Below the pieces are notes generated by a model. That model made no database searches. It saw only the letters and a program-made list of their open reading frames with translations, and was not told where the DNA came from. A DNA stretch of 64,000 nt from a plasmid: the NCBI RefSeq assembly GCF_056712565.1, contig NZ_JBWXXM010000004.1. One strand, written 5' to 3'. Made by a program: the position numbers and the translations under genes. Shown piece by piece: positions 3,867 through 7,654 of this stretch. Numbering within the stretch: the stretch's first letter is position 1; each line of letters begins with the position of its first letter.

Positions 3867-4787
3867 TTATGGATTGCGCTTATGGATCTGGAAGCCGATT
3901 TTCCTGCCGTTTTTTATCTCTGAAAATTTAAGATATTCAATAGCTTCCAAATCTTTCATGGCTTTTCTGATAACGCTATTTTGCACGCTAACGGATGATT
4001 TGAGATTAAGCCTCGCTCTAAGGCGCTCAATGCTGACAGGTGCCGGGTTGGCGGGTAGAGCCTCAAAGAATGTATACAGTACCTTGGCCGTCTCTTTGCG
4101 CCCTAGTTTATCCAGCATCTTCAGCTTCAGGATTCGCTTATAGTCAACATAGTAAAGTTCAGATAGCTGTTTCTGCGGCTGGATCTCGATAACATCAAGC
4201 TCGGTATTCAGGCTGCTATATGCCAACAAGTTGACGTTAATGTTATTGAGATGACCTTTTGCCGCCGGGAAGCGGAATTTGACAACTGTCTGCTGAATGC
4301 GTGTCAGAGAGTCATCAATACTTTTACGGAACGCCTTTGAAAGGCGCTTACGTGGATAGCCGCATCGATCGGCAAACTCGGAGAATGGCAGGGTGATTAT
4401 GCCGTCATCATCAGGTGCGTAGTCAAACAACGCGGAAGTTATGCCCACCCACACCTTAAAATCAGTATCCATATCCAGGCGTGGACCATGAATTTCAATT
4501 CCCTCATAGCCTTCCTGCTCAACAATTTTGAGGCTTGATAGTTCTTCAGTTGCGTTCGTTGTGTTTGTTGTAACTGACGATCCGCGACGTAGCGCCACAT
4601 TGGTAGATTTTAAGGTTGGCACAAACACACCTAAGCGCAACAAAGCGATGGGTTGTATAGTGCTGTTGTTATTGGGCTTCAGGCTGTGGATTTCTCCTGT
4701 ATTTCCTGCAACTTCTTCAACGCTAAGGAAGCCTTTACTTTCTTCCGGCATCACGGTTTCTCCATGTGTGGCGCGGCCTGACGTCAA
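3867..4787 (-). CDS. repA: RepA plasmid replication initiator (iteron-binding)
   Basis: 306-aa ORF flanked by iteron arrays on both sides; RepA-like motifs (GPRLDMDTDFKVW); alternative start at 4751. Confidence 0.8.
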   Translation of the reverse strand: MTSGRATHGETVMPEESKGFLSVEEVAGNTGEIHSLKPNNNSTIQPIALLRLGVFVPTLKSTNVALRRGSSVTTNTTNATEELSSLKIVEQEGYEGIEIHGPRLDMDTDFKVWVGITSALFDYAPDDDGIITLPFSEFADRCGYPRKRLSKAFRKSIDDSLTRIQQTVVKFRFPAAKGHLNNINVNLLAYSSLNTELDVIEIQPQKQLSELYYVDYKRILKLKMLDKLGRKETAKVLYTFFEALPANPAPVSIERLRARLNLKSSVSVQNSVIRKAMKDLEAIEYLKFSEIKNGRKIGFQIHKRNP

Positions 4788-4935: not shown

Positions 4936-5043
4936 GATCCCATTTCAGGCCAGTAATGACGCGGCTTACAGCGATCCGGGATCTTCTTTGGATCTTCCTA
5001 GGTTCTCTTTAGGATCTGTTTATTGGATCTATGCTGTGGATAA
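4936..5043. promoter_or_regulatory. origin-associated GATC cluster (6 Dam sites) and DnaA box
   Basis: GATC at 4936, 4973, 4980, 4991, 5013, 5026; TGTGGATAAG at 5035-5044 is the reverse complement of DnaA box TTATCCACA. Confidence 0.65.
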
Positions 5044-5086
5044 GTTGAATAAACCGGCCAACAAAGCCGGTTGGAAGGAAGTCATA

Positions 5087-5479
5087 TTATTCTACGCTTT
5101 CGATAAGAAGACCATGTTCATAACATTTAAGCTCATCGCCTTCATACAGGAATTGGTATCCAATACCACCATTTTCATGGACATTAGGGAATAACTCATA
5201 ACTCACTGAAGAGCAAATCACACCAATGCAGCGATCAACGCCTTCTCGTTCTTCAGTGCTGAAAAAATCCTCTTCGGTAAGAACATGAGTACATTGCTCA
5301 TCAGCATAGGTCGGAAATACATGCTCGATGCAATCCGGGTGTTTTAAACCAAGCTGATCGGCAAGCTCGAAAGCATGACGGTATTGTTCAGATCCTGGCT
5401 TGCCAACAGTGATGTGCTCAATTTTGTAGATTGAAGTCGCTTTGTTGATAGTTTGCTTTACTGTTACTTTATCAGACAT
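5087..5479 (-). CDS. hypothetical protein (upfA-like position)
   Basis: 130-aa ORF upstream of repA origin in same orientation as neighbours. Confidence 0.5.
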   Translation of the reverse strand: MSDKVTVKQTINKATSIYKIEHITVGKPGSEQYRHAFELADQLGLKHPDCIEHVFPTYADEQCTHVLTEEDFFSTEEREGVDRCIGVICSSVSYELFPNVHENGGIGYQFLYEGDELKCYEHGLLIESVE

Positions 5480-5490
5480 AAAAATCCCTT

Positions 5491-5742
5491 TTAGTTACCG
5501 CTGATAGCGCGGTTGTAATCATTAACGTTGCGATTCTTCCTGTTAATCCCCATCAGCATCGTTTCTGTATCGAGGATATACGCTGGCAGATCATCAAAAT
5601 ATTCACTGCTAAACTCTGGCATTCTGCACATAAATGCACTTTTGGGGGCAGGGTGGTTAACCTTTGTCGGCGTCGGCGTTAAATTCGCTGATCGACTCCC
5701 GGAGCAACCGCTGAGTGTCAGCAGGAATGCGCTGGCGAACAT
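5491..5742 (-). CDS. lipoprotein, o-spanin-like (Rz1-like)
   Basis: Signal peptide MFASAFLLTLSGC with lipobox, Pro-rich mature part; overlaps 3-prime end of the upstream coiled-coil membrane ORF in another frame. Confidence 0.5.
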   Translation of the reverse strand: MFASAFLLTLSGCSGSRSANLTPTPTKVNHPAPKSAFMCRMPEFSSEYFDDLPAYILDTETMLMGINRKNRNVNDYNRAISGN

Positions 5743-6079
5743 TACCCGCCGCAACCAGTTGTTTCTGAACTTCAGCTTTTCGTTCCATTTGCCTGTCAGC
5801 ATATTTGGCTTGTTCTGATTCATTTTTCACTTCCTGGCTGTGAAAATGTTGCTCTGCTTTGTTCATCGTCTCAATGGTCTGGTTAAGATCCATTATTGAC
5901 TTATCACGTTCCTTAACAGCCTGATCAAGACTGCCAATTTTCTCCATGGCTTGCTTTAGCTGATGACGTTCCCATGCAAACCCAGCACCAACAAGTGCGC
6001 AAATCAGAACAAGAACACCAGTAGCAGCAAGTTTCTCCTTCAAAGACAAAGCTGTTTTTAACGTAGAAAAGAATGACAT
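5657..6079 (-). CDS. i-spanin-like (Rz-like) membrane coiled-coil protein
   Basis: N-terminal TM segment GVLVLICALVGAGFAW then coiled-coil; AGGAGG RBS before ATG at 6079; overlapped by lipoprotein ORF. Confidence 0.5.
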   Translation of the reverse strand: MSFFSTLKTALSLKEKLAATGVLVLICALVGAGFAWERHQLKQAMEKIGSLDQAVKERDKSIMDLNQTIETMNKAEQHFHSQEVKNESEQAKYADRQMERKAEVQKQLVAAGNVRQRIPADTQRLLRESISEFNADADKG

Positions 6080-6118
6080 GTCTTCCTCCTGAAGAAAAAT
6101 TATCAATGAAGTCCTTTG

Positions 6119-6904
6119 TTACTGTGCCGCTTTGTTTAATTCATCAAGAACAGAATCAGGAACCAAAGCGGCAACTGCGCTGGCTGTGCTGGCCTTATTT
6201 GCTGATGCTTCCGCAAGCGCGGTACCGATAGCATGGTTATAAGCAGTTATGGCTACGTTGGCGCTTTCATTCGCTCGTTCATACTGCTGTTGTAACGCAG
6301 TTGTGGGCGCTGTTGTCTGGTTGAAAACAACCCCAAACTGTTCAGTTGCTACTTTCAGAGATTCAATTTGCTCTTCTGTTAGTGCTGGTGGGGGAGTGGC
6401 AGTGCCGCCGCCTGAACCAGAGCCTGACGAGCTTCCTGAGCCAGTGTTAAGGGTCTGGTTAATCTCCCCCATTGCAGCGACTAAACTTGATGTATTAAGC
6501 GCGTTAACAGCGTCCTCAAGCGATTTAGTAATATTCACATCACCAATGGCAATAGAGATCGGCAGTTCTGAAACTTCTCGCTCATTAGCACGGCAGTAAA
6601 CATCCCAACCAATATCGAGTTGAAGCAGCATTGACAGATCTGCATAACCAGCCAACAGGTCCGCGTGCTTAGTTGCCAGTTCTCCAATGTTCGTTAAGCC
6701 GGTTGTGGTTGTTCTGATCGTTGAAACATAGCTGGTAATAGTGTCGGGATAGACAATTGTATCCAGAATTAATCCGGTCAATTCTTCTGCAAGCAGTTTT
6801 GCTGTGTTAGCACTGTTTCGTGCCGATGTTATGGCACCAGGTGTTTTCATCCCACCGGCGGCGGCCAATTTTTTATATGCGGATAACTGGTAGTCTTTTT
6901 CCAG
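6119..6904 (-). CDS. hypothetical protein with Gly/Ser-rich linker
   Basis: 262-aa ORF from ATG at 6904 (RBS GGAGAT); GSGSSSGSGSGGG linker. Confidence 0.55.
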   Translation of the reverse strand: MEKDYQLSAYKKLAAAGGMKTPGAITSARNSANTAKLLAEELTGLILDTIVYPDTITSYVSTIRTTTTGLTNIGELATKHADLLAGYADLSMLLQLDIGWDVYCRANEREVSELPISIAIGDVNITKSLEDAVNALNTSSLVAAMGEINQTLNTGSGSSSGSGSGGGTATPPPALTEEQIESLKVATEQFGVVFNQTTAPTTALQQQYERANESANVAITAYNHAIGTALAEASANKASTASAVAALVPDSVLDELNKAAQ

Positions 6905-6915
6905 CATGATATCTC

Positions 6916-7200
6916 CTAACTTACCTGAACCAGGCCGTCTCCGGACGCTACGGTAGATCCGCATGAAACAGGGTCACCAACGCATACGATCCCTTTACCA
7001 TTGACGGTAAACCATGCCCTGGTTGATATAGCTTGCCCACCGTGCGTACTGTTTCCATCGGTATGCTGTGCATATTGCTTACCATCAACTAACACTTCGA
7101 CTCCGTTGACTTTAAGTAGTGGTTCACTCTCTACAGGAGGCCTGGATGGGAATCCTCCGTGCCCCGAACAAATGCTGTCTTTTGTTGCAATACTTGCCAC
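6916..7200 (-). CDS. PAAR-like small protein
   Basis: 94-aa ORF with HGG and GDPVSCG motifs reminiscent of PAAR spike-tip domains. Confidence 0.4.
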   Translation of the reverse strand: MASIATKDSICSGHGGFPSRPPVESEPLLKVNGVEVLVDGKQYAQHTDGNSTHGGQAISTRAWFTVNGKGIVCVGDPVSCGSTVASGDGLVQVS

Positions 7201-7281
7201 GCCATCACCAATTATTTGCTCTGATTTTCGTTATTTTAACTTAGGTTATTTGTGGTCTGTATGGCGTTTACTTATTACAAA

Positions 7282-7298
7282 ATTGCTCTAATAAATAT
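7282..7298 (+). promoter_or_regulatory. C1-operator-like site
   Basis: ATTGCTCTAATAAATAT upstream of uhr-hrdC. Confidence 0.55.
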
Positions 7299-7369
7299 TG
7301 TTTTTTATGTCGTATTTTCGGTACCATTCAGCCATCGCCCTTCAATGGGCATTTGTTTGGAGTCGTCAG

Positions 7370-7654
7370 ATGCAGATGGAGCTAATAAGCCGCAAGGAGT
7401 TCGATAGCCGTGTAACCAGCGGTGAACTCGACAACTTGCAGGCTATCAAGGTGAAAGAAGGCTTTTGCCTCATTGGGAATCAGAGCGGAACAAATCGCGT
7501 TTTTATGCTTCGCCGTACGGATTTGAAGCCATTTGTCTGGAAGAACGAAATTGGTCCCAGCTCATACGCTCAAACGAGGGGGTGCCACAACCTGGCCTTT
7601 TTCTACAAAGACGAGCTTTCTGTGGTTGATATTCAAGGGTTACAACATGTTTAA
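7370..7654 (+). CDS. hypothetical protein upstream of hrdC (uhr-like)
   Basis: ORF in frame from 7298, likely start at MQMELIS (7370); stop overlaps hrdC start. Confidence 0.45.

Follow-up and report, generated by a model that had tools for sequence, protein, structure and literature searches.

A PAAR-type spike-tip gene and its conserved partner beside the replicon of a P1-like phage-plasmid

We have analysed here two adjacent genes in a 64,000-nucleotide stretch of plasmid DNA (contig NZ_JBWXXM010000004.1 of assembly GCF_056712565.1; hereafter the window), to which all positions refer unless another contig is named. Positions 5000-7400 share 99.3% DNA identity with Escherichia phage vB_EcoM-Ro157c2YLVW and 95.8% with reference phage P1, and sequence comparison identifies the window as a P1-like phage-plasmid and the two open reading frames as upfC and upfB, which the P1 record (NC_005856) names P1_gp066 and P1_gp065. 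On this side P1 has repA-oriR-upfA-mlp-ppfA-upfB-upfC, and past upfC comes the divergent uhr-hrdC-dmt operon; repA and oriR lie just past upfA, and the corresponding RepA reading frame in the window is at 3867..4787. The features considered are collected in Table 1. The initial annotation had noted that both genes adjoin a plasmid replicon and are encoded away from the tail genes, and this is indeed the arrangement, with ~9 kb separating them from gene 5. That gene, which it had described as a gpV-like spike, is P1 gene 5: the window version shares 99.4% identity with this region of P1 and scores against the Pfam OB domain Phage_base_V (E=4.2e-4, 21.1 bits), and the P1 gene encodes the spike as seen by cryo-EM (PMC12810830).

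Table 1. Positions of the upfC-upfB genes and associated features in the window
Feature	Position	Strand	Description
upfC	6916..7200	-	94-aa PAAR-type spike-tip protein; GTG start 7200, TAG stop 6918-6916
upfB	6119..6907	-	262-aa all-helical two-domain protein; ATG 6907 most likely start, TAA stop 6121-6119
upfB Shine-Dalgarno AGGAG	6913..6917	-	overlaps upfC TAG stop; 5 nt before ATG 6907
UpfB hinge, Gly/Ser/Thr/Pro	6386..6445	-	residues ~155-174 of the 262-aa form
ppfA	5657..6079	-	predicted inner-membrane spanin (Rz-like); next gene, same direction; PHROG 89 'Rz-like spanin' E=1.5e-25
mlp	5491..5823	-	predicted outer-membrane lipoprotein spanin (Rz1-like); PHROG 30284 'Rz-like spanin' E=2.2e-77
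gene 5	16046..16678	-	trimeric tail spike carrying UpfC; 8.8 kb from upfC, same strand

The two genes that follow upfB have the features of spanin genes. The start of ppfA, which is labelled Rz in newer P1 records, was taken as ATG 6079, which is preceded by AGGAGG, and mlp overlaps the 3' part of ppfA in another frame, with a lipobox LSGC in its translation. Together the two products are predicted to form a two-component spanin of the Rz/Rz1 type, in which the ppfA product would be the inner-membrane partner, anchored by its N-terminus.

The 94-residue protein, UpfC, reads MASIATKDSICSGHGGFPSRPP...NSTHGGQAIS...VCVGDPVSCGSTV, with the motifs GHGG (13-16), THGG (52-55) and GDPVSCG (75-81), so that HGG occurs twice (14-16 and 53-55). 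A reading frame of this length with HGG and GDPVSCG motifs had been reported in the initial annotation and likened to PAAR spike-tip proteins, and both the frame and the likeness are borne out, the latter by a solved structure, by PHROG 281, by a family profile and by published cryo-EM (PMC12810830). PDB entry 9vyi chain A, named 'UpfC', is identical at 93 of the 94 positions (E=1.7e-60), and 9f4b_BA also matches in the PDB search. In phmmer searches of PDB sequences the more distant matches are T4 gp5.4 (5iv5_ZA and 4ku0_D, E~1e-7) and the type VI secretion system (T6SS) PAAR protein 4jiv_D (E=3.7e-4), and a profile built from ten UpfC lineages improves these to 3.4e-12 for gp5.4 and 1.4e-12 for 4jiv_D, and matches 4jiw_D at 1.9e-8. 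PHROG 281 ('PAAR motif') aligns with residues 1-93 (E=2e-30). A search with the PAAR profile PF05488, which had been proposed as a check, gave a split result in that UpfC does match (E=8.5e-6), but at 26.4 bits against a gathering score of 27 it misses that threshold by 0.6 bit; all ten lineages of the family match PF05488, the best at E=1.5e-11. The NCBIfam model T6SS_PAAR_dom aligns with positions 4-93 of 94 (E=4.5e-9), at 36 bits against an equivalog cut-off of 124. On these alignments UpfC is homologous to the solved PAAR and spike-tip proteins across the whole ~95-residue domain. The alignments with the PAAR core (4-93 for NCBIfam, 1-93 for PHROG) cover the 94 residues, and we found no effector or toxin extension of UpfC.

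Four residues of UpfC, H14, H46, H53 and C80, are invariant in the ten lineages, down to 34% identity, and align with the three histidines and one cysteine that coordinate an Fe ion in gp5.4, in which H14A abolishes spike binding (PMC12407873). UpfC is thus predicted to keep an apical metal site of three histidines and one cysteine. The relationship with T4 has been recognised previously: the P1 record already gives 31% identity to T4 ORF5.4, and HHpred equated the two proteins with 99.4% probability (PMC9024508). Two cryo-EM studies have since placed one monomeric UpfC on the trimeric gp5 needle (PMC12810830; bioRxiv 2025.07.21.665459), and from these and from the 93 of 94 residues shared with 9vyi the window protein is expected to form a cone of three hairpins with a pseudo-threefold crossover and to sit at the blunt end of the trimeric beta-helical spike.

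The neighbouring gene requires a revised start. The initial annotation had described a reading frame with a long linker between two domains, and there is such a frame, a maximal ORF of 281 aa at 6119..6964 (the form used in the P1 annotation, NC_005856) with NTGSGSSSGSGSGGGTATPPP between two conserved helical regions. However, 44 close homologues all cover 93% of the 281-aa query and are no longer than 262 aa, and every full-length close homologue (240-262 aa) begins MLEKDYQL. The first 19 codons of the longer frame (6908-6964, minus strand) overlap the end of upfC and are missing from every homologue. Because the homologues all start with MLEKDYQL, the most likely start, judged by this comparison, is ATG 6907, with a product of 262 aa rather than 281. 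The AGGAG in front of this start overlaps the upfC TAG, which suggests translational coupling of upfB to upfC, and in relatives the stop and the start either overlap by 1 nt (TGATG or TAATG) or stand no more than 9 nt apart.

UpfB is matched over its full length by PHROG 1559, a family of unknown function (residues 1-262, E=2.7e-138), and an AlphaFold2 model of the monomer is all-alpha, with a mean pLDDT of 76 that falls below 50 at residues 158-171 of the 262-aa form. The match and the model together suggest a PHROG 1559 protein of two helical domains joined by a hinge. The hinge is 20 residues of Gly/Ser/Pro in the window; across a 51-sequence alignment it varies from 7 to 27 residues and occurs in Gly/Ser, Pro/Ala or Thr-rich versions, and the most conserved block of the protein in that alignment is the N-terminal 20 residues. 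UpfB has neither a signal peptide nor a transmembrane segment, the top Kyte-Doolittle average over 19 residues being 0.97. Sequence searches of Pfam, NCBIfam and the PDB found no relatives, fold searches gave nothing specific, and no relative of solved structure or established function turned up. We note that the best BFVD fold matches of the UpfB model (6122-6907, minus strand), none of them significant, include several DUF7217 proteins (E 0.008 to 1.4), from Pectobacterium phage Wc4, Serratia phage vB_SmaA_3M and Escherichia phage FEC14, and the model may point to a remote link between UpfB and this other phage family.

The dN/dS ratios against reference P1 are 0.02 for upfC and 0.26 for upfB, and UpfB-like sequences are present in 747 PLSDB plasmids, mostly from Escherichia and ~90-100 kb in size, so we regard the two as real genes and not chance ORFs. 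UpfB is 91.2% identical to its counterpart in reference P1 and 98.9% to that of phage Ro157c2YLVW, and its substitutions relative to P1 cluster round the hinge, at residues ~124-215. Synonymous divergence from P1 is 0.22 for upfC and 0.16 for upfB (0.12-0.22 across upfC, upfB and upfA), and at most 0.03 for genes 5, 6 and 25. We also observe that dS is about ten-fold higher in the genes at 5087-7200 than in those at 16046-20797, and we therefore interpret the upfC/upfB segment as mosaic, a recombinant near the replicon-proximal operon derived from a more distant P1-like lineage.

The association of the two genes extends well beyond P1. A UpfB profile search over 1.84 billion representatives gave 80 UpfB-like clusters, almost all of them full-length at 245-265 aa, and we examined the contigs of nine UpfB-like representatives, from ~40% down to ~18% identity, searching their ORFs with the window proteins. 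Every contig with sequence upstream of the UpfB-like gene also carries a UpfC-like ORF, and the two occur together in each of the nine lineages. In six of the lineages (L004/5/6, L010, L011/12, L013, L015 and L017/18; seven with the window) the UpfC-like ORF is directly upstream, and in the other three (L007/8, L014 and L016, the last being CP100427.1) two to five small genes intervene, which in L007/8 include lysozyme and spanin genes. D6-like plasmids also encode a UpfB-like protein, at 27% identity, with a 'PAAR domain-containing protein' annotated at the match. Throughout the window and the nine lineages, members of the UpfB family thus follow a PAAR-type tip gene within a P1-like tail module. 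The UpfB-like protein of L015 is the most distant of the set, and had no tblastn match in the phage collection. We note separately that the UpfC-like ORF of L013 (7293-7580 of that contig, E=2e-35 to UpfC of the window) is uncalled in the source assembly and overlaps the start of the UpfB-like gene by 1 nt.

The gene order in these relatives bears on why the pair lies beside the replicon. Gene 5 and upfC adjoin in distant relatives: L015 reads 26-25-7-..-24-6-5-upfC-upfB, the part 24-6-5-upfC-upfB being uninterrupted, and in L007, L014 and L016 upfC directly follows gene 5. In the closer relatives L004, L010, L013 and L017 the order is 5-hrdC-dmt-upfC-upfB on a single strand. The window has gene 5 and upfC on its minus strand, 8.8 kb apart; the intervening DNA opens with uhr-hrdC-dmt, which is on the plus strand, and closes with dbn. 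The simplest reading of these orders is that upfC-upfB(-spanins) would be the original 3' end of a baseplate-hub/spike operon, displaced by an insertion and by a later inversion of the non-structural block, an account drawn from nine sampled lineages and not from phylogenetic reconstruction. Tip genes need not adjoin spike genes (PMC12407873). The initial annotation had taken the location next to the replicon as a possible sign of injected or ejected proteins, and that argument is not supported: what lies beside the replicon is probably a split-off operon end, and the position is therefore no evidence for a separate class of injected proteins. Some delivery of UpfC and UpfB into the periplasm is nonetheless plausible, because the parts of a spike tip enter the host envelope first and not because of where the genes are. 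A ParA-like partition ATPase gene, on the opposite strand, is directly upstream of upfC in L004 (4271-4897) and L017 (6938-7564), so that tip genes adjoin plasmid-maintenance genes in more than one P1-like lineage.

The place of UpfB in the virion is less secure than that of UpfC. In P1, UpfB has been described as three trimers that form a 'tripod' anchored at the spike tip, with a reported UpfC:UpfB stoichiometry of 1:9, and the authors state that the basis is an AlphaFold3 model of the UpfB trimer fitted into a medium-resolution map (PMC12810830). A second study of the P1 baseplate does not mention UpfB (bioRxiv 2025.07.21.665459), and no PDB chain contains it. LC-MS/MS of CsCl-purified P1 virions gave 27 proteins, of which UpfB was not one, and 'UpfB' is absent from the main text (PMC9024508). 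Given that proteomics report, the lack of a PDB chain and the silence of the second study, a single fit at medium resolution is what carries the tripod assignment.

These same observations are what a different role for UpfB would lead one to expect, namely a factor that acts during assembly, folding the PAAR tip or loading it onto the spike, and then departs, as the chaperones and adaptors of T6SS PAAR proteins do, with the tripod density belonging to something else. P1 UpfB is predicted to yield about nine usable tryptic peptides of 7-30 residues and is still unreported in the virion proteome (PMC9024508), it has no atomic model, and the tight coupling of upfB to upfC would suit such a helper. 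However, gp5, gp26 and UpfC were likewise missed in the same virion LC-MS/MS (PMC9024508), which makes the absence of UpfB weak evidence, and the tip density reportedly accommodates a predicted trimer of UpfB (PMC12810830). Genetics does not discriminate between the two roles. The upfC knockout forms normal plaques (PMC9024508) and CRISPRi scores both genes as non-essential (PMC10695390); both are dispensable for laboratory plaque formation, and since loss of upfC is without defect too, the lack of a plaque defect on loss of upfB is uninformative. We consider the assembly-factor role unlikely, and favor UpfB as a component of the tip.

The proximity of spanin genes raises a further alternative, that UpfB is a lysis-cassette protein such as a spanin accessory and is near upfC only through a shared position in a late operon. 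Spanin or other lysis genes directly flank the UpfB-like genes in the window and in L004, L007, L010, L013 and L015. However, UpfB has none of the membrane-targeting segments looked for above, the UpfB-like gene of L011/L012 follows upfC with no recognised spanin behind it, and the stop-start coupling is to upfC and not to a spanin gene; the cryo-EM assignment is also opposed to it, and we give this explanation very little credence.

The signals that express upfC and upfB were sought upstream of upfC. From eight annotated P1 sites we derived a late-promoter pattern (AAGTKACTW-N4-TANAAT), which has no match within two mismatches upstream of upfC; the window has four such matches, none of them near upfC. 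The best late-promoter candidates upstream of the gene have three mismatches and nothing conserved in relatives, and the only site from a sigma-70 scan, at 7239..7211, matches at 9/12, which chance alone would give; neither was retained. The P1 record (NC_005856) annotates no promoter upstream of upfC. The upfC-uhr intergenic region (7201-7330) contains the C1 operator ATTGCTCTAATAAATA (Odmt/Op68 in P1) together with Pdmt of the divergent operon. Elsewhere in the window, 208-226 on the minus strand is a perfect match to the P1 late-promoter pattern, AAGTGACTTTCAATAAAAT, facing the window start, and by its position may serve the head gene past parB as its late promoter. The spanin genes ppfA and mlp downstream fit a late operon for upfC-upfB. 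With only Odmt and Pdmt of the divergent early operon annotated in the upfC-uhr region, and no canonical late promoter found upstream of upfC, one could imagine upfC and upfB as a module under its own control, whose ejected products are made together with early or plasmid functions, but this is hard to credit when upfC-upfB of relatives lie directly after gene 5 or are co-directional with it, when spanins, which are late lysis functions, come next, and when the structural genes of P1 are anyway dispersed among several operons.

We therefore return to the reading in which upfC and upfB of a P1-like phage-plasmid encode the spike tip and its tripod and stem from a split operon, a joint account that we hold to be probable. 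A single UpfC, a cone of PAAR repeats, would cap the gp5 trimer at the blunt end of its beta-helical spike, the apex of the cone held by the metal site of H14, H46, H53 and C80. It would sharpen the spike, which sheath contraction is expected to drive through the outer membrane. Translation of UpfB would begin at a start that is coupled with the end of upfC and give a protein of two conserved helical domains and a disordered hinge, and three UpfB trimers may hang on the spike tip as the 'tripod', a predicted model placed in medium-resolution density. The role of the tripod, a helical appendage of nine copies on a membrane-piercing tip, might be envelope contact, a protective cap or an aid to penetration. 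An ancestral operon 26-25-7-24-6-5-upfC-upfB(-lysis genes) would have been split when the hrdC-dmt block entered between gene 5 and upfC, and in the P1 lineage this block appears now to be both inverted and enlarged.

A more speculative thought, to which we attach only a small probability, is that UpfB could be a detachable load on the PAAR tip, a counterpart of T6SS PAAR cargo, freed into the periplasm at puncture, that assists penetration or survival on some hosts or envelope types only. A detachable load would explain the conservation of UpfB with upfC across P1-like phages, its dispensability in the laboratory, its evolution around the hinge, faster than that of upfC, and an easy loss from purified virions.

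The PAAR tip was rightly recognised, but in phage P1 it had been described before: the similarity to T4 ORF5.4 dates from the 2004 genome annotation, the HHpred assignment from 2022 and the cryo-EM had appeared by 2026, the year in which UpfB was also assigned to the spike tip. The findings presented here have little significance beyond annotation. What is new is the corrected upfB start, giving 262 aa, evidence for a conserved and translationally coupled upfC-upfB pair across P1-like phage-plasmids, D6-like ones included, and an explanation from gene order for the occurrence of tail genes beside a replicon.

The profile homology of UpfC extends to the T6SS PAAR proteins VCA0105 (4jiv_D) and c1882 (4jiw_D), with which it shares the capping of a trimeric beta-helical spike (PMC12407873), although UpfC lacks both a literal Pro-Ala-Ala-Arg motif and an effector extension, and belongs to a phage tail and not to a secretion system. 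UpfC and T4 gp5.4 (4ku0_D, 5iv5_ZA) are both single-domain PAAR-type cones of ~95 aa that align over residues 7-90; each sits as a monomer on a beta-helix of trimeric gp5, and neither is needed for plaques (PMC9024508, PMC12810830, PMC12407873). However, P1 gp5 is without the lysozyme domain of T4 gp5 (PMC9024508, PMC12810830), the T4 gp5.4 gene is within the baseplate cluster, and no UpfB-like partner has been reported in T4. The closest comparison is with P1 itself, where P1_gp066 (9vyi chain A) is the same gene in another P1-like phage, of the same length and with the same neighbours, differing from the window protein by a single substitution (A85 in 9vyi, S85 here), and where P1_gp065, the 'tripod' protein of PHROG 1559, is annotated at 281 aa while the family supports the shorter form of 262.
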